Source: an uncultured Candidatus Saccharibacteria bacterium (GTDB lineage Bacteria; Patescibacteriota; Saccharimonadia; Saccharimonadales; CAYLGV01). From it: 64,000 nt of DNA. Both the position numbers and the translations under genes were made by a program. The first letter of the stretch is position 1, and every line of letters begins with the position of its first letter. Under the pieces are notes generated by a model that was given only the letters and a program-made list of their open reading frames with translations, searched no databases and was not told where the DNA came from. Shown piece by piece: positions 5,244-50,687 of this stretch. Location of the stretch: positions 20,947 to 84,946 of the forward strand of contig CAYMZG010000002.1 of the NCBI GenBank assembly GCA_964394925.1. The letters run 5' to 3'.

Positions 5244-6560
5244 TTAGGCAATCTTTACGCACCCGCAAGAACCTGAGATGCGCTTGCGACCACTTGATGA
5301 TAACTTTTGCACTTTCGTTCTTACATTCTTCTTCTGACACAGTGGGCATTCTTTTGATACAAAGTCACAATCTGCATCATCATCTTCGTTGCTCGTGTCG
5401 TTGCCAATTTTTGATTCAGACATGCCAGATGGGCAAGAGTTTGAATTCTCTGTTTGCTTGGCCTTTGACCTATTCTCCTCAAGCGCTTCTAGATCACCAC
5501 GCGCAATTGCTTGGCGACTCGCTTCAATATAGCGAGCCGCTTCAAGGCCAAAGACACGACTATCTATTGAGTGATCCATAATTGCTTGATCAACCATATG
5601 AAAGCCCGAAAGATCATTCAGTAAACGTACCGCATCAATTGGTTTATGAATTACAGGGGCAGCTGAAATGAGCTCTTGGGTGATTTTCTTAACTTTGGGC
5701 TCAAACAAGGCTTCGCGCTCGCGGCACATATCGAGGTAATCCTGATAGTTTTGAGATGGTCGATCCTCACCAAAGAAAGTACCAGATATGCCATCCCATA
5801 GCTTTACGATATCTATCACGCCGTTTGGAATAAGATCATTGCGAATGAGGATGGGTATGTCAATAATCTCTGCCGGCGACAGACCAACATAATCCGCCCC
5901 GAGCGCCTGGCCAAGCTTGGCGGCAGTTGCTTCATCGTGAGGTACCTCCCCCTCAGCGGCAATTCCAGCTACAAAAGCCGACTCAAGGGCCAAGGCACCT
6001 TCTGACTTACCGATTAGTTGCAGAGAGCAGCTCATAGTCTCAGTAAAGAAACCCTGCTCCGGTAGATTCTCGGCCCGCGACACAACCAGCATGCTGTAGT
6101 TTTCAAAAAGACCATCTTTGAAGTACTGCTCTATGCGAAAAGCGTTGCGTGTTTCAGCCTCAGTACGCGCTCGCATAATTGGATGATTCGATGCAAAACG
6201 AAGGCTATTGGCTTGAATGGAGTCCATGATCTGTCCATGCTGGACCACTTTCCCTTCAGCTGTAATGTTCAATGGAACCTTTTCCATTACGTGGCCGGTC
6301 TTTATGGTACGCTCAATGACGTCGGTGCGAACATTGATCTCAACCATATGTTCTGCTTCTTTGTCGCCTTCGTAATATGCTCGATCGATGCCTTGCTTCA
6401 AGTTCTCAATGGGGCTTTCAACAGGAAGCGCCTCAATACTAGTTGCCTGATTCGCAGCAACTTGACCAATGAATGTACCTGCCCGTAACCGAACCTCAGA
6501 ATCAACCTCCATCTCGGAGGCAACCCTTGTTTTTGGAAGTTCGGCACTGGCTACTGCCAT
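5244..6560 (-). CDS. Hypothetical protein with Cys-rich C-terminal tail (CPLC...CGC)
   Basis: 438-aa uninterrupted ORF, no recognisable family; C-terminus 'CDFVSKECPLCQKK...SGSCGCVKIA' looks like a zinc-ribbon. Confidence 0.4.
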   Translation of the reverse strand: MAVASAELPKTRVASEMEVDSEVRLRAGTFIGQVAANQATSIEALPVESPIENLKQGIDRAYYEGDKEAEHMVEINVRTDVIERTIKTGHVMEKVPLNITAEGKVVQHGQIMDSIQANSLRFASNHPIMRARTEAETRNAFRIEQYFKDGLFENYSMLVVSRAENLPEQGFFTETMSCSLQLIGKSEGALALESAFVAGIAAEGEVPHDEATAAKLGQALGADYVGLSPAEIIDIPILIRNDLIPNGVIDIVKLWDGISGTFFGEDRPSQNYQDYLDMCREREALFEPKVKKITQELISAAPVIHKPIDAVRLLNDLSGFHMVDQAIMDHSIDSRVFGLEAARYIEASRQAIARGDLEALEENRSKAKQTENSNSCPSGMSESKIGNDTSNEDDDADCDFVSKECPLCQKKNVRTKVQKLSSSGRKRISGSCGCVKIA

Positions 6561-6779
6561 AAAAATACCCCTGTCCCTTTATAAAACAGAGGCTACGAAA
6601 AAACGTTACCGCTCCTGCTCGAGAGACTTACCCCGTGTCTGGCTTGTGATGGTGCTTTCGGCTTCACTTACAGTTGCGGCACAGCTCAGGATTCTCACCT
6701 GATTCCGGTTATTTGTTATGTTAACTATTTAGTAGTGTAGCACGCGCGGCACACACTACATGTAGTAGTTTTAACTATT

Positions 6780-7484: not shown

Positions 7485-7564
7485 GCTTTAGCACCTTAGC
7501 CCATATTATACATGAAGCTTATGCTTCACACCCATAAGCTAACTCACTATTCTCCCAAGAGTAC

Positions 7565-7601
7565 GGAAAGCCGCCAAAAGAACAATTGTTCTTGGCTTTC
7601 C
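7565..7601. repeat. 37-bp palindromic element, copy 1 (core AAGAACAATTGTTCTT flanked by GGAAAGCC/GGCTTTCC)
   Basis: Read directly: GGAAAGCCgccaaAAGAACAATTGTTCTTGGCTTTCC; near-identical inverted copy at 11945-11981; about 70 bp upstream of the ORF starting at 7484. Confidence 0.8.
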
Positions 7602-7644
7602 TGATTGGCTATAGCAAACCCTCTTGTTGAAATAGTAAGTTAGC

Positions 7645-8298
7645 TTATGGACCAGCAATAATGAGGATGTCAGCGTCGGTTGGTTTGTCTTCGCCAGCTG
7701 GCAAGCTGCCAACCGTACCCTTAACAGCGTCAGCGATCTTCTTAGCCTGATCGGCGTTCTGACCACTTACATCAACAACAGTTATGGTGGTTGGTGGTGT
7801 CTTGGCCTCGCCACCATCGTTTGCCGTTAGCTGCTGCGCCTTGAGTGCCGTGGCTACTGCTTGGCGAGCGGTGGTGTTGCCGATGACCTTGATCTTGGCA
7901 TTGTTGTTTTGAATCGTTACCGTACTAACATTTACGATCTTATTAGTGCTTGGGCGGTACAAAATTGCCAACTTGGCGTTGGAATAAATGAGACTAACAT
8001 CGCCGTTTTCGGCATTGTTAAAGAAAGCGCCATATTGCTTCTTGGTGGCTTCTTTGTCTTTAACGGTGGCAATGGTGGGCTTTTCGTCTTTTGGCAAATT
8101 GTAGAGCTTGCCCACTTCGGAAACAGTCTTGTCGGCTTCCTGTTGCGCGACTGAATCGGCCGATGGTGGATTAGCTTTAAGGTGTTGGTACTGCCTAAAG
8201 TAGTAGGCGCCGAAGACGGCGAGCCCAACAATTACCAGTACATTAGCGGCCGCGAACAGCGGCTTTTTGAGGTTCTTCTTCTTTTTCGTCGTTTCCAT
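7645..8298 (-). CDS. LytR/CpsA/Psr C-terminal (LytR_C) domain protein, membrane-anchored
   Basis: 217 aa; N-terminal TM; C-terminal '...VTIQNNNAKIKVIGNTTARQAVATALKAQQ...ITVVDVSGQNADQAKKIADAV' resembles the LytR_C domain. Confidence 0.4.
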   Translation of the reverse strand: METTKKKKNLKKPLFAAANVLVIVGLAVFGAYYFRQYQHLKANPPSADSVAQQEADKTVSEVGKLYNLPKDEKPTIATVKDKEATKKQYGAFFNNAENGDVSLIYSNAKLAILYRPSTNKIVNVSTVTIQNNNAKIKVIGNTTARQAVATALKAQQLTANDGGEAKTPPTTITVVDVSGQNADQAKKIADAVKGTVGSLPAGEDKPTDADILIIAGP

Positions 8299-8332
8299 TG
8301 TTCTTTATGATACCTGCTTACGCTTATATTGG

Positions 8333-9130
8333 TCAACGTAGGGTGAAAGCGAGAATCAATAGGAGCCCCGTCACAATACGATAGTACCCGAAGATATATA
8401 ACCCGTGTTTGCTGAGAAAATGCAGCATAAAGCGAATCGCAAACAGACCGCTAATCATAGCCGTGAGCACACCAACAATTACCGCCCCGCGTTCATCACT
8501 GAACTGCTGCATAATGCCTTTTTCAGTAAAAACTTTTAGCACAGCGCCGGCTGTAATGGGAATACCGAGTAGGAATGAAAAACGGGTGGCCGCCACGCGG
8601 TCGAGGCCCGTAAACAAACCAGCCGTAATGGTACTACCGGAACGTGACACACCAGGAATAACGGCAATCGCTTGGGCAAAACCCATGGTCATTGCTTCTT
8701 TGGTATTCACATCTTCGAGTGCCGTGTGTGCTTTGCGTTTTTTGTAGTATTGCTCGGCCAGAATCATGATAAGACCAAACAGCAGCATGGTAGTACCTAC
8801 TAATCGGCCCGAACGGAAGACCGACTCCGCCGAACTCTCAAGCAGAAAACCAATAATGGCAGCTGGAATCGTAGCCGCAATCAGCAGCCACGTAAGGCGC
8901 GTTTCCTTACTTTTTACGAACAGTGATTTAGCGTATTTGATAAGATCTTTCCAGAAATATGCAATTAAGGCAATCAACGTACCGGCGTGCAACGCAACAT
9001 CGAAGGCGAGCCCGTTATTAAACACCCCGAGGGCATGGTGAGCTATCACCAAATGACCCGAAGAGGACACTGGAATAAACTCAGTTAGCCCCTGTATTAA
9101 CCCCAAAATGAATGCCTGAATAAGCGTCAT
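8333..9130 (-). CDS. uppP: Undecaprenyl-diphosphate phosphatase
   Basis: 265 aa; 'GLTEFIPVSSSGHL' and 'PGVSRSGSTI' BacA/UppP signature blocks. Confidence 0.9.
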   Translation of the reverse strand: MTLIQAFILGLIQGLTEFIPVSSSGHLVIAHHALGVFNNGLAFDVALHAGTLIALIAYFWKDLIKYAKSLFVKSKETRLTWLLIAATIPAAIIGFLLESSAESVFRSGRLVGTTMLLFGLIMILAEQYYKKRKAHTALEDVNTKEAMTMGFAQAIAVIPGVSRSGSTITAGLFTGLDRVAATRFSFLLGIPITAGAVLKVFTEKGIMQQFSDERGAVIVGVLTAMISGLFAIRFMLHFLSKHGLYIFGYYRIVTGLLLILAFTLR

Positions 9131-9149
9131 AATTCTCCTCTAGTATACG

Positions 9150-9947
9150 CTAACGTTGGTAAATATCGCGCTTCAGAAATATCACAGCCGACACCAAGAG
9201 AAAGACTGCCGAGACACCAAGCATCACCCACACATTGGTGGCGTGCAGGCCGTTAGCGGCAATACCAGGATTGTTGTAGTAATGGAACGGTGATAGCCGC
9301 TCAATTGTTTTGATGCCGCTCACGCTGGGCGCAAACGAGGTAAGCAAGTAGGTCGAAAAGGCGATCAACCCAGCAATACTACCCGAGAAGCCACGGCGAC
9401 CGCTAACAGCACCAATAGCAAAGCCAAGACTACCGAACAAGAACACAAGTAGCCACACACCTAAGGCAGCTTCGATAAGCCGCATAAAACTCATAGTTTC
9501 GTGAATAAGAATAAGCCCTACCCACACACCTACAACCGCCGTCATACAGATCACCAGGCTAACCACAATACCTGCCGCTAACTTTTCGATGTATACCTTA
9601 AAGCGTGAGACGGGTTGTGATAGCGCTGTTTGCAAGGTGCCCTCACCCTCCTCACCAGCGAGCAAGCCAGTAAATAGCATAATGCTCATAACCATCAGGA
9701 GCAGTGGCACGCGCAGTCCAAAGACTTCTTGCGACACATAACCAGGCACTGTTTTGAGCGAGCTCACATCACCAACAAGGCCCTTCATAGATTCGGGAAG
9801 ATTCTTCAGCGCTTCGTCGAATTGGCCACCCGAAAATGAGTGGTAAAAGGCCATCATGAGCAGGCACATACCAATCACGCCCAAACCCCAGAAAACGATT
9901 GACCAACGCTGTTGATACAGTGTTTTGGTAAAGATCGACTTAAACAT
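9150..9947 (-). CDS. ABC-2 family transporter permease
   Basis: 265 aa, 6 TM, immediately downstream of and overlapping the ABC ATPase gene by 8 nt. Confidence 0.7.
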   Translation of the reverse strand: MFKSIFTKTLYQQRWSIVFWGLGVIGMCLLMMAFYHSFSGGQFDEALKNLPESMKGLVGDVSSLKTVPGYVSQEVFGLRVPLLLMVMSIMLFTGLLAGEEGEGTLQTALSQPVSRFKVYIEKLAAGIVVSLVICMTAVVGVWVGLILIHETMSFMRLIEAALGVWLLVFLFGSLGFAIGAVSGRRGFSGSIAGLIAFSTYLLTSFAPSVSGIKTIERLSPFHYYNNPGIAANGLHATNVWVMLGVSAVFLLVSAVIFLKRDIYQR

Positions 9948-10833
9948 GATCGACCTCCTGGTAGTAGTGCATAAAGATCGACTCTAGATCAGCCTCGGTA
10001 ATGGTCACGTTTTGCACCTTATGTTTGGCCAGCAAACCAAGCACCACATTAATGTCGCCTGTCGATGTAAACTCAGTGTACTCATTGGTAGCATTTTGTA
10101 GCTTGGTGCCCTTTATTTTGCCAAGTTGCTCGAGTAGTTTCTTGTCTTTAGTGGTCACCCGAATATATCTGGTTGAGGTATCGGTTAGTTCCTTCATAGT
10201 CTTTGTAGCAACCAGCTCACCTTCACGAATGAAGGCCACATTATCACACAACGCTTCGACTTCGCTTAACACATGCGAAGAAATAAAAGCCGTTTTACCC
10301 GCTGCCTTGTGCTCAGCAATGATCTTGTTAAATTCAGCTTGCATGAGCGGGTCTAATCCACTCGTAGGTTCATCAAAAATAAGCAGCTCAGGCCTATGCA
10401 TGAGAGCTGAAATAAGTCCCACTTTTTGCCGATTACCACGTGATAAGTTCTTAAAGCGCTTGCTCAGATCACACTCTAGTCGGTCAGCCAGTTCCTGAAT
10501 ATATGCCTTATCGAAGCTACCGCGCAGGCTACCGTAGTACTTCAGCTGTTGCCAACCACTCAGGTCTTTGTCGAGCGCGAAATCACCTGCCAAAAAACCG
10601 ATGCGCTTACGGATCTCCACGCCTTGTTTGCGCGTATCCATGCCAAAAATTGTAATGTCGCCCGAAGTTGGTCGGATCAGATCCATCAGCATGCTAATGG
10701 TGGTGGTCTTACCCGCACCGTTAGGGCCAAGAAAACCCGTCACTTCACCCTCTTTTACGCTGAGGTTCAGATCACTCACGCCACGGCTCGTGCCATACAT
10801 CTTGGTCACGTGCTTGAGTTCAATAACTGCCAT
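9940..10833 (-). CDS. ABC transporter ATP-binding protein
   Basis: 297 aa; Walker A 'GPNGAGKTT', signature 'LSRGNRQKV', Walker B 'LLIFDEPTSGLD'. Confidence 0.85.
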   Translation of the reverse strand: MAVIELKHVTKMYGTSRGVSDLNLSVKEGEVTGFLGPNGAGKTTTISMLMDLIRPTSGDITIFGMDTRKQGVEIRKRIGFLAGDFALDKDLSGWQQLKYYGSLRGSFDKAYIQELADRLECDLSKRFKNLSRGNRQKVGLISALMHRPELLIFDEPTSGLDPLMQAEFNKIIAEHKAAGKTAFISSHVLSEVEALCDNVAFIREGELVATKTMKELTDTSTRYIRVTTKDKKLLEQLGKIKGTKLQNATNEYTEFTSTGDINVVLGLLAKHKVQNVTITEADLESIFMHYYQEVDHV

Positions 10834-10848
10834 ATTTGTATTGTACGC

Positions 10849-11304
10849 CTATGCGGGTTGAGCCTTGGTTTTTAACTCACTGAGGCGCGGAATAAAACTC
10901 TGAGCGGCGCCGTCAAGCCCGAGTACTTTCAGACTGCCAATCAGAACATACAAGGCATCGAGTTCGGCTTGTTCGAGCATGCTGGCCTGCTCAGCCTGCG
11001 TAAAACGGTGTTCAACTTTATCAACAAGCCACTTCTCTTCGTGCGGCTTGATCTCATTCGTTTGCAGCGGCGGGGTTTCGGACGTTTGAATCACCTCGAG
11101 CGAGCGCGCCGAATTGTCACGCTTTTTCAAATGACCACGCTTAATAAGACTATTTACATGTAATGCCACCGTAGCCACCGAGTTATAGCCCTGCCCAGCC
11201 ATGACTTCACGGTAACTGGGGCTGTAGCCGTGCTCGGCAATGAACGTTTCAATAAATGTCAGCAGCTCTTTTTGCTTTTTGGTAGGGCGAACAACCTCAG
11301 GCAT
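10849..11304 (-). CDS. LexA N-terminal DNA-binding-domain protein (wHTH regulator lacking the S24 peptidase domain)
   Basis: 151 aa; 'KKQKELLTFIETFIAEHGYSPSYREVMAGQGYNSVATVALHVNSLIKRGHL' matches the LexA_DNA_bind fold; no Ser/Lys peptidase region follows. Confidence 0.5.
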   Translation of the reverse strand: MPEVVRPTKKQKELLTFIETFIAEHGYSPSYREVMAGQGYNSVATVALHVNSLIKRGHLKKRDNSARSLEVIQTSETPPLQTNEIKPHEEKWLVDKVEHRFTQAEQASMLEQAELDALYVLIGSLKVLGLDGAAQSFIPRLSELKTKAQPA

Positions 11305-11857
11305 GACTTCTCCTTATGTTACTTTTACGTTTTGTAACGGTTTGCTTAGTGGTTTTCTTAGCCTTGCGTACATAGGCGGCGTGTCCGTGTGGGCGATGCG
11401 CTACATATGGTGCGTGCGGGCGTGGCTTTGGCTGTGACTTTTTCTTTACAAACTTCTCGGGGAAAACCCAGTACTTGTACCAGAAGTAGTTCCACACAGT
11501 GAAGAAGCCCGACGAAATAAACTGGCCGATGTACGGTGTAATTCCGACTGTTTTAAGGCCAAATACAATCAGATAATCCAGCACGAAATCGGTGAGCGTA
11601 ATAAAGATGTAACGGCCCGTAACCTCGGTTTGATGTTTCTTCAGTTCGGGGTTTCGGAATACCCAATAGCGTTGCAGCAAATAGTTAACTGTCCAGCCGA
11701 CGAGTGTTGAGATAGACTTCGCCCAAAAGAAGCTCGATTGAAAGCCTTTATCGAAGATAAAAAAAGTTAGGTAGCCCGACCAAAAATAGGCGCCACCACT
11801 GATCATATATTCGGTGAAACGCTTTATTTCTTTGGTTTGTTTTTTCTGAAGTTTCAT
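11297..11857 (-). CDS. GtrA-family polysaccharide-synthesis membrane protein
   Basis: Start taken at the internal Met (MKLQKK); 4-TM GtrA-like topology ('YMISGGAYFWSGYLTFFIF', 'YLLQRYWVFR'); Lys-rich C-terminal tail. Confidence 0.65.
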   Translation of the reverse strand: MKLQKKQTKEIKRFTEYMISGGAYFWSGYLTFFIFDKGFQSSFFWAKSISTLVGWTVNYLLQRYWVFRNPELKKHQTEVTGRYIFITLTDFVLDYLIVFGLKTVGITPYIGQFISSGFFTVWNYFWYKYWVFPEKFVKKKSQPKPRPHAPYVAHRPHGHAAYVRKAKKTTKQTVTKRKSNIRRSHA

Positions 11858-11944
11858 AATGCTTCTGCTTCTTGATAGATAGTATAGCATCGGGGTGGCG
11901 CCTGTACACATTTTGTTTGGAGGGGCTCGGTTTATAGTGCCAGA

Positions 11945-11981
11945 GGAAAGCCAAGAACAATTGTTCTTCTGGCGGCTTTCC
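11945..11981. repeat. 37-bp palindromic element, copy 2 (inverted orientation relative to copy 1)
   Basis: GGAAAGCCAAGAACAATTGTTCTTcTGGCGGCTTTCC; differs from the reverse complement of copy 1 at a single position; lies in the divergent intergenic region between the GtrA gene and the sugar transferase gene. Confidence 0.8.
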
Positions 11982-12031
11982 GGACCCTACAAGTAAAATG
12001 CGTACAGACGGTGATACAATAGTCACCAGAT

Positions 12032-40602: not shown

Positions 40603-41577
40603 ATGAAAAAGATATTTGTTGTAATTCCCAACTGGAACGGCGCCGATATGATCGCCGAGTGCCTGGAGTCTCTCGAGAAACAGACCTGCAAGCACGAAGT
40701 TATAGTGGTAGATAACGGCTCAGTTGATGAGTCGGTTTCCATTATCGAAGCCCAATTCCCCGATGTTCACCTTATACGATTGCCCGAAAACACTGGCTTT
40801 AGTGGTGGTGTAAATACTGGCATTGCCTACGCGCTCGAGCAAAAGGCAGATGCTATCGCACTCTTTAATAACGACGCTGTGGCTGAAAAAGATTGGCTCA
40901 AGCACCTCGTAGAAACCATGGAAACCCAGCCCGAAGCCGGCATCGTTGCCTGTAAGCTCCTTCGTGACGACAAGAAACACTTCGATAGCACGGGTGACTT
41001 CTACACCATTTACGGGATGCCATTCCCTCGTGGCCGTAACCAGCTCGACAAAGGGCAGTACGACAAGCTCGAGGAAGTCTTTGGCGCTAGTGGTGGCGCT
41101 AGCTTGTACCGTGCCGAAATGTTTAACCAAATAGGTATTTTTGACCAAGCTTTCTTCGCCTATTATGAAGATGTGGACATAAGTTTCCGCGCTCAACTAG
41201 CTGGCTGGAAGATCTTCTATAACCCCAAAGCTCGTGTATATCATCACGTTTCGGCCACCAGTTCAAAACTTGGTTCATTTACCCGCTACCACGCCACCAA
41301 GAACTTCTATCTGTTATATGCCAAGAATATGCCTCGCAAGCTGTATTGGAAATACGCGCTGCGATTCGCCTTTTTGGCAGTCTTTCTTGCAGGCTCATCG
41401 ATGCTACGTGGTGGATTCTGGGCCTACCTAAGAGGCACCTGCAAGGCTTTTTGGCTCACACCGCACATCATTCGAGAACGTCGTCGCATTCAGCGTGAGC
41501 GCACGGTTTCAATAGCGTATATAGATTCGATCTTGGTTAAAGAGCGACCGCCACGGATTCCGCCCGTTTCTTCTTAG
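40603..41577 (+). CDS. Glycosyltransferase family 2 (rhamnosyltransferase-like)
   Basis: Start at the internal Met (MKKIFVVIPNWNG); 'VIVVDNGSVDES', 'LFNNDAV' GT-A motifs; C-terminal membrane-associated segment. Confidence 0.75.
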   Translation: MKKIFVVIPNWNGADMIAECLESLEKQTCKHEVIVVDNGSVDESVSIIEAQFPDVHLIRLPENTGFSGGVNTGIAYALEQKADAIALFNNDAVAEKDWLKHLVETMETQPEAGIVACKLLRDDKKHFDSTGDFYTIYGMPFPRGRNQLDKGQYDKLEEVFGASGGASLYRAEMFNQIGIFDQAFFAYYEDVDISFRAQLAGWKIFYNPKARVYHHVSATSSKLGSFTRYHATKNFYLLYAKNMPRKLYWKYALRFAFLAVFLAGSSMLRGGFWAYLRGTCKAFWLTPHIIRERRRIQRERTVSIAYIDSILVKERPPRIPPVSS

Positions 41578-44964: not shown

Positions 44965-47814
44965 ATGCACACAGTTAGTCGGTCCACAATACATCGTCGT
45001 ACATTTGCTTGCTTGCTCCTATTAGTCGTGGTTTGTTCTTCACTCTTCCCTAGGACCGGCTACACAGCGGCTACCTCACCTTGGCTAACCCCAGATCCAA
45101 CCCTAACAAAATTAGGAACAATTGATAGTAATGCCCCTCTAACAGCAGACATTGTTGGCAACCAAGATTGCCAACCCGCCGAAATTATCACCCGCCCCGA
45201 GCGCACCATCCCACCCCAAAGCAAACAAAGTCACGATAGTTGCCTTGTAGACACTGGCTTTGGCGCCCTGTCGGCAAGTGGTTATTTGCAACGGCAAGGC
45301 AGTGATGCTTTTGGCTATCTACGATCATCGGTTGGCAATCAGGCTATTGTTGGCATTCCGCGCACCAACAATGCCCTGGCAACACTAGCTTCTTCTACTC
45401 ATGGTACCTATGTCGGCTTCTATGACAACCTGCGTAGTCTTGTTTCTAGCACTACATTTAGTGATATGGTCACGCACACAATGCCGAATAACCCCTCGGC
45501 CGCTCTAAGCGACCACACCGGCAACAAACTGGGTGTTGAGTTATCGTCGTTAAGTTTTTCGAGCGAAGGTGACTGGGCGGTTGTCGAAGCGCCGGGGGTT
45601 GCCATGCTTCGCATAAACACTGCGTCCCATTTGGTACTCCCTTTTTCTGAAGCACCATTGCTCGACAACACTGGACTAGCCTATCGTACGGCTATAAATG
45701 CCGACGGAAGATATGCAATTGTCATCTCTAAAACGCGTTCGCTCATGAAACTGTATGATCTATCAACATGTGCAGCAATTCCCGACACTATAGCTGGCCC
45801 TGTAAGTTGTACAGCCGTCGATCTGCTGCCATTCATCAAGACCAAGATCACCAACTATACGAGTGTCGCAAGCGTTCGATTTCGCGGCGACTACACCCTT
45901 GAGCTATACATAAATACATCAGCAGCCACCATTGAACACGTCCTTATTACCGCTTCAGGGCAATCCGCTGCTCGCTTTGAATACTTGGCACTGGGGGATT
46001 CGTTTGCCTCGGGCGAGGGTGCCTACCAATATAAATCAGCAACCGATACAACCGCCAATGGTTGCCATCTATCCCTGCGCTCATATCCCTATTTGATCGC
46101 CAAACAACTGAGCCTAGACCAGACGGAATCAGTGGCATGTTCTGGCGCCACCACAAACGACCTTATCAATGGTGTGGCCGACTATCGCTTATATCATTCA
46201 CAGGCCAAAGGTAAGGAATCGGAAGCCTTTGACGAGGCAATCTTGCGTGACTTTTTGCCTGGGTATCGTGCTCAAAAGCTATTTGCTAATAGGTATCGCC
46301 CGCGGGTATTAACGGTCATGATTGGCGGTAATGATGTGGGCTTTTCAGATATCCTGCAACGTTGTCTTGGACCCGACACTTGTTACAGCCACTACGAGGA
46401 TCGTCTTGAGTTGTTAAATGAGGTGAGTGCACAGTTTAATTCGTTGGCGGGTACCTTTTCTGAAATAAAACATGCCGCGCCAGATTCTGAGCGTATTTAT
46501 GTGCTTGCCTATCCCCAGATTGCAGATGCATTTGGAAACTGCGCGCTTAATGTTCACCTAAATTATGATGAACTTGTTTTGGCGGGCACATTGGTAAGTC
46601 ATTTGAATAGCATCATCAAAGGCGCTGCTGAACATGCTGGAGTCACCTTCCTTAACACAGAGGATGCTTTGCATGGTCATCGCTTGTGCGAGACAACCGC
46701 GAACAGTATTGCGGTCAACGGACTAACTATTGGTAACGATATTTTGAACCTCCCGTACGCTCATGGTCCGATCGCGAAGGAAAGTTATCACCCAAATAGC
46801 CTTGGTCATGAACTTATGAAAAGTAATATATTGTCGCTCGCGAGTAATTTTTCGGTCTTAAACAAAGCTCCAAACCCCTCAATTAAAGCCAAGCAACCCG
46901 ACACAACAAGCGATGCGCTGAAAGTTCCCAAGTCAAATCGAGCGATTAGAAAAGTCATTCACCAAAAAAGCAATAACCCAGCGCCAGCCAAGAAGAAGAC
47001 AAAACGGATTGCGACAACCAAAGGCGTAGCTAGCATCTTCAGATCAGGTAAACAGCCACGTGTTTTATTGGATGGTCAAGGAGAACCAATTGGAACAGTC
47101 ACCTCAAACCCCGATGATTCGATAACGGTTGAGTTCACCCCTACAGACGAAACCCCTGATGGCCCCCATACCGTAGACATAGTTGGCGAGAACACTAGTG
47201 GCGAGCCGATTGCCGTCACCGAAACGGTTGTGGTTGGTGATTCCCAGGGGCCGTGCGGAGCTTTTGCGCCCAGCAATACCGATGTCGATCACGATGGCAT
47301 CGATGACGCCTGCGACCCATTAATTGGCACGGGTAGTATGGCTTCGTCGGATCAACTGGTTGTTGTGAACACCGGGGGCACGGGTGGTACAGGGACCACA
47401 GTAACTACAGGAGCCCCGGGAACCGCAGAATCAAGCATTCCTACTACACAAACACCGACCACGAGCCTCGTTACCACAACCGATAGCGTAGCCACACCGA
47501 GCACTCCAAATTTGATCATCCAAGGTTCACGGACCATAGCCATCCCAATTAATCCAACAGCCTTAACGGTTAGCAAGCCCAAGAATAGCACCGTTGCACA
47601 AGTCACACAGCCAGCTACTAACGGGCTCGTGAAGGGTCGGCAGACCACAGCCAACAGTCACAATACATCCAGGCCAGGAATCACACCACCCGCCTCGGCA
47701 TATAAAAACCCACCAAAGCTTGATGTATTGAAGCCGTGCAGTCTGTTTTTGCTTATAACTATTTGTTTGGTTGTGATGTTCGTAATCTATAAACGAAGAA
47801 AGGACCGCCGATGA
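44965..47814 (+). CDS. Cell-surface SGNH/GDSL-family hydrolase (949 aa) with signal peptide, Thr-rich stalk and C-terminal TM anchor
   Basis: Signal peptide 'LLLLVVVCSSLFP'; SGNH block I 'YLALGDSFASGEGA', later 'MIGGNDVG' and 'SYHPNSLGH'; 'DVDHDGIDDACDP' Ca-binding-like motif; C-terminal 'LFLLITICLVVMFVIYKRRKDRR'. Confidence 0.6.
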   Translation: MHTVSRSTIHRRTFACLLLLVVVCSSLFPRTGYTAATSPWLTPDPTLTKLGTIDSNAPLTADIVGNQDCQPAEIITRPERTIPPQSKQSHDSCLVDTGFGALSASGYLQRQGSDAFGYLRSSVGNQAIVGIPRTNNALATLASSTHGTYVGFYDNLRSLVSSTTFSDMVTHTMPNNPSAALSDHTGNKLGVELSSLSFSSEGDWAVVEAPGVAMLRINTASHLVLPFSEAPLLDNTGLAYRTAINADGRYAIVISKTRSLMKLYDLSTCAAIPDTIAGPVSCTAVDLLPFIKTKITNYTSVASVRFRGDYTLELYINTSAATIEHVLITASGQSAARFEYLALGDSFASGEGAYQYKSATDTTANGCHLSLRSYPYLIAKQLSLDQTESVACSGATTNDLINGVADYRLYHSQAKGKESEAFDEAILRDFLPGYRAQKLFANRYRPRVLTVMIGGNDVGFSDILQRCLGPDTCYSHYEDRLELLNEVSAQFNSLAGTFSEIKHAAPDSERIYVLAYPQIADAFGNCALNVHLNYDELVLAGTLVSHLNSIIKGAAEHAGVTFLNTEDALHGHRLCETTANSIAVNGLTIGNDILNLPYAHGPIAKESYHPNSLGHELMKSNILSLASNFSVLNKAPNPSIKAKQPDTTSDALKVPKSNRAIRKVIHQKSNNPAPAKKKTKRIATTKGVASIFRSGKQPRVLLDGQGEPIGTVTSNPDDSITVEFTPTDETPDGPHTVDIVGENTSGEPIAVTETVVVGDSQGPCGAFAPSNTDVDHDGIDDACDPLIGTGSMASSDQLVVVNTGGTGGTGTTVTTGAPGTAESSIPTTQTPTTSLVTTTDSVATPSTPNLIIQGSRTIAIPINPTALTVSKPKNSTVAQVTQPATNGLVKGRQTTANSHNTSRPGITPPASAYKNPPKLDVLKPCSLFLLITICLVVMFVIYKRRKDRR

Positions 47815-48455
47815 CAACCTCAATTACCACTAACAATAAAACCCGAGACATCGTCTCAATAAACACTAATCCACTTGTAGAAACAGATGTATATTTGCAC
47901 ATTAAACTGCGCGGCTTTAATGATCAACCATTGTTCTTCGAGCCGGCAGACTATCACTATTTTGAGTTCTTGTTGCAGCATAATTTAACGGATCACATTA
48001 CTGAGATGGAACGTTTTGGGGGCATCTACCCTGATTTTCATAATGATATTGAGCTGCTGTGTTTTAGCCTGCTTGAGACACGATTGTATTTGCTGGTTCA
48101 TCAGAAGACTACTTTACGCACCAAGGATTTTTTACAATCCTTGCTCACCAGATACGCCCGCTATTACCGAATGAAATATGAGCGCATGGGCCCGGTATTT
48201 GATCCGAGTCAGCGTGTTGCTCCAATTCGCTCGCAGCGAGACTTTGATTTTGTTAGTCGCGGCATTCATTTAAGTCCGCCGAGGTGGCAACGATATCGTT
48301 ATTCTAGCTTGCGGTACTACTTAGACGAAACGAGCCCACCGTGGCTCAAGGTTAATCGGCTACTTGGAGCCTTTACTTCCCCTTTAGCCTACTTGGCGTT
48401 CCTAAAGAACTATGAACACTATCAGGAAAACCTGAGGAATGATCCATTGGGCTGA
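47811..48455 (+). CDS. IS200/RAYT-like (Y1 transposase fold) protein with degenerate HuH motif, possibly domesticated
   Basis: 214 aa; 'YLHIKLRGFNDQPLF', 'DYHYFEFLLQ', 'ELLCFSLLETRLYLLVHQ', 'RYARYYRMKYERMG', 'SPPRWQRYRYSSLRYY' align block-by-block with REP-associated tyrosine transposases, but HxH reads RLY. Confidence 0.45.
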   Translation: MTTSITTNNKTRDIVSINTNPLVETDVYLHIKLRGFNDQPLFFEPADYHYFEFLLQHNLTDHITEMERFGGIYPDFHNDIELLCFSLLETRLYLLVHQKTTLRTKDFLQSLLTRYARYYRMKYERMGPVFDPSQRVAPIRSQRDFDFVSRGIHLSPPRWQRYRYSSLRYYLDETSPPWLKVNRLLGAFTSPLAYLAFLKNYEHYQENLRNDPLG

Positions 48456-48491
48456 CAGGCTAAACAGTTTACAACTTTTTCGTGAAGGTTA

Positions 48492-49028
48492 TTACGCTTC
48501 AGTGTCGGCAGAATCGTCTTCAGATTCAGGTTTAGTGACAGTGTCAGCGCTCGGCTTGTCGGCCTTTGTAGTTGCCCCCGGCTTCAATATGATGTGCCTG
48601 TCGCGGCCTTCGCCAACCGATTCGGTGATAAGCCCCGCGTCGTTAGCCTCTTTGTGCACAATGCGCCGATCAGCAGCATTCATGGGTCGTAGCTCCATTG
48701 GTTCGCCGGTTTCAGCTACTTTTTTGATCCACGCAGCAGCTTTATCTGCCACGCGACCGGCCCGAGCCTTCTTATAATCGGCTATATCAACGTTTACACG
48801 AGTATATTCATAGCCTTGATTCTTCAGCGCATTACTAATAATGAACTGGAGGGAACGCATGGTGTCACCGTGTTGGCCAATCAAAAAGCCGTTCATAGAG
48901 GTGCTTGGCACATTGAGTTCAATTACCTCATGATCTTCGGTTGTTGCGTATACGTCGGTGTTAAGACCAAAGAAAGACAGCATGTCTTCTAGGTATTTCT
49001 TGGCATATAAGATTGCTTCATCCATCAC
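48492..49028 (-). CDS. jag: Jag/KhpB RNA-binding protein (KH + R3H domains)
   Basis: 178 aa; R3H block 'ELRPMNAADRRIVHKEANDAGLITESVGEGRDRHIIL'; immediately downstream of yidC with a 4-nt overlap. Confidence 0.8.
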   Translation of the reverse strand: MMDEAILYAKKYLEDMLSFFGLNTDVYATTEDHEVIELNVPSTSMNGFLIGQHGDTMRSLQFIISNALKNQGYEYTRVNVDIADYKKARAGRVADKAAAWIKKVAETGEPMELRPMNAADRRIVHKEANDAGLITESVGEGRDRHIILKPGATTKADKPSADTVTKPESEDDSADTEA

Positions 49029-50549: not shown

Positions 50550-50687
50550 TTAGGCGCTGAGGCGAACGCGACCCTTAAGACGACGACGCTTTAGAATATT
50601 GCGGCCAGCCTTGGTCGACATGCGCTTCATAAAACCATGCACACGTGCATTCTTGCGCTTTTTTGGTTGATACGTACGTTTTGGCAT
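50550..50687 (-). CDS. rpmH: 50S ribosomal protein L34
   Basis: Hand translation of the minus strand gives [45 protein letters not shown] (45 aa). It is absent from the ORF track only because it is under 60 aa. Confidence 0.9.

Follow-up and report, generated by a model that had tools for sequence, protein, structure and literature searches.

A catalytically dead relative of REP-associated Y1 transposases, probably retained for a non-cutting role, next to jag in a Saccharibacteria genome

We analyzed a stretch of 64,000 nucleotides (the window) from an uncultured Candidatus Saccharibacteria bacterium (assembly GCA_964394925.1, contig CAYMZG010000002.1, positions 20,947 to 84,946) and, within it, a gene for a protein of 214 amino acids (aa) that lies between a GDSL hydrolase gene and jag. 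We consider it likely that this gene descends by vertical inheritance from a Y1 HUH transposase associated with repetitive extragenic palindromes (REPs), that is, from a class-2 (Y---NP) TnpA-REP or REP-associated tyrosine transposase (RAYT), that it is catalytically dead, and that its product now acts by binding. Its new role is probably one that does not involve cutting. A first-pass annotation had described the gene as a domesticated or decaying Y1 transposase; our comparisons support that description and favor domestication, with nine same-locus sequences in open frame and a nonsynonymous divergence (pN) of 0.16-0.24. RAYTs are the standard example of bacterial transposases kept by their hosts, and to our knowledge all described RAYTs keep their catalytic residues.

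Results

When searched alone, the window protein gave no useful match in Pfam, NCBIfam, PADLOC, PHROGs, or PDB sequence searches. It falls below the gathering threshold of PF01797 (Y1_Tnp), a family that matched none of the eight same-locus proteins of its kind (the dead clade) even at E ≤ 10, and a profile of these eight matched no PDB chain. One sub-threshold match of the dead clade, to Deltaretro_Tax, was rejected as spurious. The wider family was more informative. Searched exhaustively with phmmer, 1.84 G representatives yielded 1,214 relatives with E ≤ 1e-3, most of them about 200 aa in length, and PF01797 was matched at E ≤ 0.01 by 67 of the 74 relatives that were aligned. A profile of the 74 matched ISDra2 TnpA and Escherichia coli TnpA-REP in the PDB; the family's LMPNHFHLL aligned to the HuH motif of ISDra2 TnpA (MPDHVHLLL) and its SRYIHLNP to ISDra2 Y132. 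Comparison of the eight orthologues with 24 intact proteins by hhalign gave a probability of 100% and an E value of 1.3e-44 over 185 columns. Finally, an AlphaFold2 (AF2) model built from the 74-sequence alignment reached a pLDDT of 90.8, replacing an earlier model on a shallow 8-sequence alignment (pLDDT 57). Its top Foldseek match in the PDB was 4ER8, a structure of TnpA-REP in complex with a REP hairpin (E 4e-4, target TM-score 0.69), followed only by the IS200/IS605 TnpA structures of ISDra2, IS608, and IS200. By AF2, Foldseek, and hhalign alike, the beta-alpha-beta-beta-alpha-beta-alpha core of the Y1 HUH fold is present. The predicted fold of the window protein is therefore that of a Y1/HUH transposase, and its resemblance to these enzymes, which the first-pass annotation had seen as blocks of similarity to RAYTs, is far beyond chance. 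The family consensus, Y---NP with a serine motif downstream, is the signature of class-2 TnpA-REP proteins, whose subclasses carry that motif (PMC6006769), and not the Y---Q of class 1. Family proteins exceed E. coli RayT by about 40 aa in length and have a long C-terminal helix.

The active site of E. coli TnpA-REP is formed by Y115, H59, H61, N119, H123, and E161, with N119 acting as a metal ligand (PMC3479197). In the window protein, the first HuH histidine is replaced by R91, the second by Y93, the nucleophilic tyrosine by Gly151, and the asparagine four residues beyond it by Ser155. Orthologues share the arginine, the tyrosine, and the serine, and at the nucleophile position the other seven have serine. 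Specifically, R91-L92-Y93 stands in place of H-F-H in 8/8 orthologues and in every alignment made, and the former catalytic helix reads G151---S155-P156 in the window and S---SP in the orthologues. The earlier reading of the HxH motif as R-L-Y was thus borne out in corrected alignments, in which both histidines are missing. Its companion claim, that candidate catalytic tyrosines remain, was not: the catalytic column holds Gly151, and Y162, Y164, and Y170 fall in the conserved, noncatalytic Y-x-Y-S-S region. With both histidines, the tyrosine, and the asparagine replaced, HUH chemistry would be impossible for this protein as its sequence stands.

What the dead proteins keep is the core of the fold and the serine motif, whose S165 and S166 are found in no fewer than 90% of family members. 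Further switches occur at positions that are strongly conserved in intact proteins (Y29L, Y32K, K38D, C86S, M88L, N120R, and K135R), and the positions at which the dead clade alone shows no variation are concentrated near the former active site and along the C-terminal helix (residues 187-207). This helix is common to two related proteins, P0243 and P0009, and is variable in intact relatives. The full H-H-Y-N tetrad was found in 114 of 150 family representatives (P0009-P0158). Outside the window clade, a degenerate tetrad (such as QHFS, NYHT, KSTQ, or GENK) was seen in 24 of the 150, in full-length open reading frames (ORFs), and loss of catalytic residues with the ORF kept appears, from these sequences, to be recurrent across the Y1 family.

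The history of the locus could be followed through relatives at several stages. The dead (R-Y-S/G-S) form is known from only 8 protein clusters among 5.8 G, and 10 clusters make up the larger Tyr-less clade, which adds P0243 (locus L007) and P0009 (locus L048); a scan of the contigs of genomes with alignment A1 gave only two Saccharibacteria loci. At the level of sequences, the dead clade numbers nine (eight complete ORFs and L006, which is truncated by a contig end), all at the same locus with open frames and 63-82% identical to the window protein. The dead gene lies directly 3' of the GDSL gene in L001 and L003-L005 and is convergent with jag in L001-L006. A GDSL gene or its C-terminal remnant is directly upstream in L001 and L003-L005, where it overlaps, and in L007, L013, L014, and L048; in L049 it is adjacent on the opposite strand. 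The Y1 genes of L007 and L048 follow an ORF with a membrane-anchored C-terminus, which matches the GDSL tail in L007 and shows the anchor only in L048. Two local differences were noted in passing. In L006 (561-1448), a relative 79% identical to the window, a 295-aa ORF with a Fic motif (HPFNDGNGRIGR), which is absent from the window, stands between the dead gene and jag, and in L004 (480-1147) a PIN/MazE toxin-antitoxin pair occupies the site immediately 5' of the GDSL gene that a DUF5684 gene occupies in the window and L003.

The intact proteins closest to the window protein (41% identity) are those at the same locus. In L013, intact P0160 is encoded directly after a 975-aa GDSL gene; in L014, a GDSL-like C-terminus and jag flank the gene of intact P0159; and in L049, the gene of intact P0279 (1301-1915) lies between jag and the GDSL gene, but inverted relative to the window arrangement and with a hairpin on each side, which suggests either an inversion between palindromic flanks or re-insertion at a preferred site. 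HuH, lost in all eight dead orthologues at this position, is accompanied by intact tyrosine and asparagine in L013, L014, and L049. Between these extremes are P0243 (HH-G-K), which keeps HuH (NHLHLL) and reads SRGIHLKP, and P0009 (QH-A-R), which reads NQIHLL and SRAIHLRP; L007 and L048 are both without hairpins. The C-terminal motif FTSPL(A/T)YL(A/I)FLKNYE.YQ is common to these two and the dead clade, and the three group together in a neighbor-joining (NJ) tree with a bootstrap of 100/100. A gap in E value from 1e-91 to 1e-65 sets this Tyr-less clade apart from all PF01797-positive proteins. Intact family members also occur at unrelated loci in other Saccharibacteria (L008, L010, and L011); therefore the family has moved over deeper time. 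Near the intact copy of L008, we observed CBASS-like genes (CD-NTase C-terminal domain and Cap15), three type IV secretion system pilin genes, and then a TrbL-like gene (1366-2950 and 8833-9969). The placement given by the first-pass annotation, between an envelope hydrolase gene and the jag-yidC-rnpA-rpmH block, was correct, but its word "inserted" is misleading: judging from synteny, the dead gene is an old resident of the GDSL/jag locus and not a recent insertion.

Each intact same-locus gene (L013, L014, and L049) is flanked on both sides by an imperfect palindrome of about 57 nucleotides (nt), ATCACATTTT-N7-CTGTTAnAGGAC...GTCCTnTAACAG-N7-TTTGTGAT. It belongs to a REPIN-like family of extragenic palindromes in Saccharibacteria (TCACATTTT...CTGTTAnAGGAC/GTCCTnTAACAG...TGTGA, ~57 nt). 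Copies also lie on both sides of the Y1 gene in L041 and recur on the same 70-kb contig (L020). Pattern scanning of metagenomes combined with folding added about 13 true copies; roughly 20 of the 33 pattern matches lacked a stable hairpin and were discarded as chance. The hairpin adjoins Y1 genes in L027 and L043 as well, lies 4 kb from a Y1 gene in L017, and sits in short intergenic gaps without a nearby Y1 gene in L018, L025, and L034. In an alignment of 20 copies, compensatory changes affected 6 of the 14 consensus stem pairs. We ruled out that the hairpins are mere terminators because the same sequence stands on both sides of the gene, recurs on the same contig, and has accumulated compensatory changes between genomes. 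Together with the intact Y1 genes, the hairpins constitute, as far as sequence can tell, a REP/REPIN-RAYT arrangement. In another Saccharibacteria genome, the intact Y1 gene of L011 has a different flanking palindrome (AGAGGAACGTCCTCT) at 7942-7966, 8645-8659, and 8687-8701, which suggests that REP types may be lineage-specific.

No such hairpin accompanies the dead gene. Run over the whole window with filters off, the hairpin covariance model reached at best 14.6 bits (E 0.54), compared with 48-80 bits for true copies, and it found none in L003, L004, L006, L007, or L048, all of which are Tyr-less. Neither regular expressions nor a relaxed palindrome scan nor the covariance model revealed a REP-like repeat family in the window, and no inverted repeats or subterminal hairpins were found beside the gene, in agreement with the first-pass annotation. 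That annotation had also proposed a search for REP-like hairpins and further copies: the window contained neither, nor a tnpB, so that the gene is single copy there, and the hairpins flank its intact sister orthologues instead.

The junction with the upstream gene was read directly from the sequence. The overlap of 4 nt reported earlier is confirmed as ATGA at 47811-47814, where the start of the dead gene meets the stop of the GDSL gene, and a ribosome-binding-like AAGGA (47800-47804) ends 6 nt 5' of the ATG. The overlap is likewise 4 nt in L001, L004, and L005 and 16 nt in L003. No sigma-70-like promoter was found near the start at 47811. The upstream protein carries PF13472 over residues 342-617 and a transmembrane anchor at its C-terminus that is predicted to leave a cytoplasmic tail of only ~8 residues. 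The GDSL gene is the conserved 5' neighbor of the dead gene and its likely co-transcribed partner. On the other side, jag is followed by yidC, rnpA, and rpmH (50550..50687) and then by dnaA and dnaN, with yidC and rnpA named from the Pfam families of their L003 and L004 counterparts, which are 79-90% identical. The window protein had no PADLOC matches (0) that would point to a role in a defense system.

Within the dead clade, pN is 0.16-0.24 while its synonymous counterpart (pS) exceeds 0.85, with synonymous sites saturated, and 96 of 214 alignment columns are invariant. Because pN is low against saturated synonymous sites and so many columns are invariant, we take the gene to be under purifying selection, which, from these sequence comparisons, indicates that it has been exapted rather than left to decay. 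The pace of change resembles that of the GDSL neighbor (57-59% identity). Compared with Jag as a yardstick, identity between Y1 proteins is 64-79% among dead members (Jag, 82-90%) and 61.5% among intact ones (Jag, 78.6%) and falls to 35-41% between dead and intact proteins (Jag, 75-83%). Between dead and intact proteins, divergence exceeds that seen for genomes of similar relatedness, a pattern indicating that substitutions accumulated in a burst along the stem branch.

Table 1. Positions of the dead Y1 gene, its motifs and neighbors in the window, and of hairpin copies at other loci
Feature	Sequence	Position	Strand	Basis or remark
ORF of 214 aa, ATG start; catalytically dead Y1/HUH (TnpA-REP/RAYT-type) protein	Window	47811..48455	+	ORF list
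Former HuH motif, codons 91-93, R-L-Y (family, H-F-H)	Window	48081..48089	+	Alignments, hhalign
Former catalytic helix, codons 149-156, S-R-G-I-H-L-S-P (family, S-R-Y-I-H-L-N-P)	Window	48255..48278	+	Alignments, hhalign
Retained serine motif, Y162-R-Y-S-S-L167, noncatalytic	Window	48294..48311	+	Conserved in dead and intact proteins
C-terminal helix, residues 187-207 (FTSPLAYLAFLKNYEHYQEN)	Window	48369..48431	+	Near-invariant only in the Tyr-less clade
Junction with upstream gene	Window	47800..47814	+	Read from sequence
GDSL/SGNH hydrolase gene, 949 aa, membrane-anchored	Window	44965..47814	+	Pfam PF13472 and PF00657
Gap to convergent jag, 36 nt, without REPIN-like hairpin	Window	48456..48491	.	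Covariance-model and palindrome scans
jag (KH and R3H), convergent 3' neighbor; opens the jag-yidC-rnpA-rpmH block adjoining dnaA	Window	48492..49028	-	Pfam
Hairpin copies	L013	3725-3785 and 4414-4472		Flank intact Y1
Hairpin copies	L014	569-627 and 1253-1311		Flank intact Y1
Hairpin copies	L049	1232-1290 and 1921-1979		Flank intact Y1
Hairpin copies	L041	1269-1327 and 1953-2011		Both sides of Y1 gene
Hairpin copies	L020	4023-4081 and 9555-9613		On the 70-kb contig of L041

Discussion

Our results point to a gene that lost its chemistry in steps at one chromosomal position. In the most parsimonious order, the nucleophilic tyrosine and the asparagine ligand would have been lost first, along with the hairpins, in the common ancestor of the Tyr-less lineages. 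These losses are placed before that of HuH because of the intermediates L007/P0243 and L048/P0009. HuH would have eroded next, with one histidine gone in P0009 and both in the window clade, and a burst of substitutions would have followed around the old active site and in the C-terminal helix. Last would have come the fusion to the GDSL gene, visible as the ATGA overlap in the R-L-Y clade. The dead protein would now be made together with the GDSL protein and would function by binding rather than by catalysis. The HUH beta-sheet scaffold, which is retained, may serve to hold its likeliest ligand, a hairpin of single-stranded nucleic acid; alternatively, the dead protein could contact a protein partner through the newly fixed C-terminal helix.

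Several findings weigh against this account. How the protein would bind is something that we infer, with a nucleic-acid ligand serving as the default for an HUH scaffold, and that default is weakened by two results: net charge ranges from -4 to +6 in the dead clade, below the +2 to +13 of intact relatives, and no candidate hairpin ligand occurs within the 64 kb. The difference in charge also slightly weakens the single-stranded DNA binding that the first-pass annotation had suggested. Vertical descent from the same-locus gene also faces difficulties. In the NJ tree, the Tyr-less clade was never placed inside or beside the syntenic intact group (0/100); therefore orthology rests on synteny and best pairwise identity. 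The failure of the tree to settle this attachment is probably due to the long branch. Furthermore, the inverted intact gene of L049 at the same locus would be consistent with repeated site-specific re-insertion. As for selection, pS is above 0.75 in all pairs, so that dS is saturated and the evidence is a comparison of pN with pS rather than a formal omega. Finally, the dead protein evolves faster than its housekeeping neighbors, at 64-71% identity compared with 79-93% (79-92% for Jag, YidC, RnpA, and DnaA).

Some of these points would also be expected if the protein were a noncatalytic adaptor whose C-terminal helix and remodeled ex-active-site face bind a protein partner, either one tied to the co-translated GDSL envelope hydrolase or a replisome component. 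The reduced positive charge, the lack of a hairpin ligand in the window, and the clustering of dead-clade-only invariant residues in helix 187-207 and at the old active site all fit such a role. The start/stop overlap suggests co-expression with the GDSL gene, and the serine motif has been speculated to mediate protein contacts at the replication fork (PMC6006769). Yet the GDSL protein offers a cytoplasmic tail of only those ~8 residues, and the GDSL linkage pre-dates inactivation and may be a historical accident. We regard an adaptor of this kind as rather unlikely, though it is the chief alternative to a nucleic-acid binder.

An argument can also be made that the gene is a functionless remnant still awaiting deletion or disruption. 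It has lost every catalytic residue and the hairpins on both sides, evolution is faster than in the neighboring genes, only 10 protein clusters in 5.8 G make up its very narrow clade, and Y1 proteins without the motifs were treated as nonfunctional by Quentin et al. (PMC6006769). A remnant, however, would hardly be expected to keep its frame open in all dead-clade sequences, even in those only 63% identical to the window protein, with pN at 0.16-0.24 despite synonymous saturation, 96 invariant columns, and a conserved start overlap and ribosome-binding-like site. Saccharibacteria have small, reduced genomes, and useless genes should therefore be deleted fast; persistence in such genomes is a further point against decay. 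We regard simple decay as unlikely. Less credible still, to the point of deserving almost no weight, is that the protein remains an active nuclease or transposase through substitute residues (Y93, or Y162/Y164, as nucleophile) or is a recently inserted IS200-like element: it has 16 tyrosines, one inside the old HuH motif, but both histidines, the asparagine, and the nucleophile are replaced, which on sequence grounds makes residual catalysis very unlikely, the gene lacks subterminal hairpins, neither a second copy nor a tnpB occurs in the 64 kb, and the position is conserved over lineages 63-82% identical to the window protein.

The closest known systems resemble the gene in part. TnpA-REP/RAYT proteins (E. 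coli RayT/YafM, PDB 4ER8; class 2, PMC6006769) provide the best structural match. The S-R-x-I-H-L-x-P framework of the window protein corresponds to class-2 Y---NP and the serine motif is present; like a RAYT gene, it is a lone gene, single copy in the window and vertically inherited at a conserved locus (synteny L001-L006), and REPIN-like palindromes flank its intact sister orthologues at the same locus and are scattered elsewhere in those genomes. Unlike RAYTs, it has neither HuH (R-L-Y) nor the nucleophilic tyrosine (Gly/Ser) nor the asparagine ligand (Ser), there are no flanking or dispersed REPs in the window, and it is joined to an upstream operon by the 4-nt overlap. By sequence it is thus a RAYT by descent that nonetheless fails three defining features of RAYTs (HuH, Y---NP, and flanking REPs). 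With the TnpA proteins of IS200/IS605 elements (IS608, ISDra2, and IS200; PF01797) it shares the HUH beta-sheet fold, but its family is class 2 (Y---NP) rather than class 1 (Y---Q), its catalytic residues are absent, and across the window and the syntenic loci it has no subterminal left-end and right-end hairpins, tnpB, multiple copies, or variable sites.

The nearest conceptual parallel is TldR, the nuclease-dead TnpB homologues that were exapted as RNA-guided repressors (bioRxiv 10.1101/2023.11.30.569447). In both cases, a nuclease derived from IS200/IS605 elements has shed both its catalytic residues and its mobile surroundings and stays at a fixed host locus. The folds differ (RuvC versus HUH), however, and the demonstrated guide RNA and regulatory targets of TldR have no counterpart known here. 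Motif-less Y1 proteins have been encountered before: Quentin et al. in 2018 excluded ~22% of their sampled sequences (924 reduced to 722) for an incomplete core domain or motifs and set motif-less Y1 proteins aside as "non-functional" (PMC6006769). The window protein differs from these in its synteny, in the purifying selection on it, and in its stepwise origin from an intact gene at the same locus. It works like nothing characterized so far.

In the literature that we searched, we found no report of a selected dead RAYT and none of REPIN/RAYT systems in Saccharibacteria (Patescibacteria), a lineage for which our comparisons now show a REPIN/RAYT-like system. Tentatively, and with more doubt than conviction, we suggest that a nuclease-dead Y1/HUH (RAYT) transposase may here have been exapted, in what would be the first case documented in a prokaryote: the enzyme would have outlived its own REPIN population, become wired into the operon of a giant surface GDSL hydrolase beside the replication origin of an ultra-small episymbiont, and come under selection for a noncatalytic role, whether as a sequence- or structure-specific binder of single-stranded DNA or RNA or as a protein adaptor. 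If true, it would be the TnpA-side counterpart of the TnpB-derived TldR regulators. At this one chromosomal position, a natural series can be followed from the intact enzyme with REPIN-like hairpins, through Tyr-less proteins with HuH retained, to the fully dead form. The presence of a selected dead form in a junk-poor genome opens two questions, namely, what use hosts make of the RAYT scaffold beyond DNA cutting and what becomes of a RAYT once its REPINs vanish.

Other features of the window

Three further features lie apart from the dead gene. Upstream of the locus, in a region rich in glycosyltransferases, short direct repeats of families D2, D6, and D11 occur at 33737-35315 and 40619-41171 with spacings of ~1.0 kb and ~5.9 kb, which suggests tandem or paralogous genes. 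A cobalamin riboswitch aptamer (RF00174) was detected on the minus strand at 6635-6706, upstream of the minus-strand ORF 5244-6560, with 33.5 bits, just above the gathering score. Finally, two inverted copies (93% complementary) of an intergenic composite hairpin, GGAAAGCC...AAGAACAATTGTTCTT...GGCTTTCC, at 7558-7602 and 11944-11988, lie on either side of six minus-strand ORFs that together span 4.3 kb (7645-11911). The composite hairpin has no relation to that of the Y1 genes; its two copies could be an operator or terminator pair or a small repeat.

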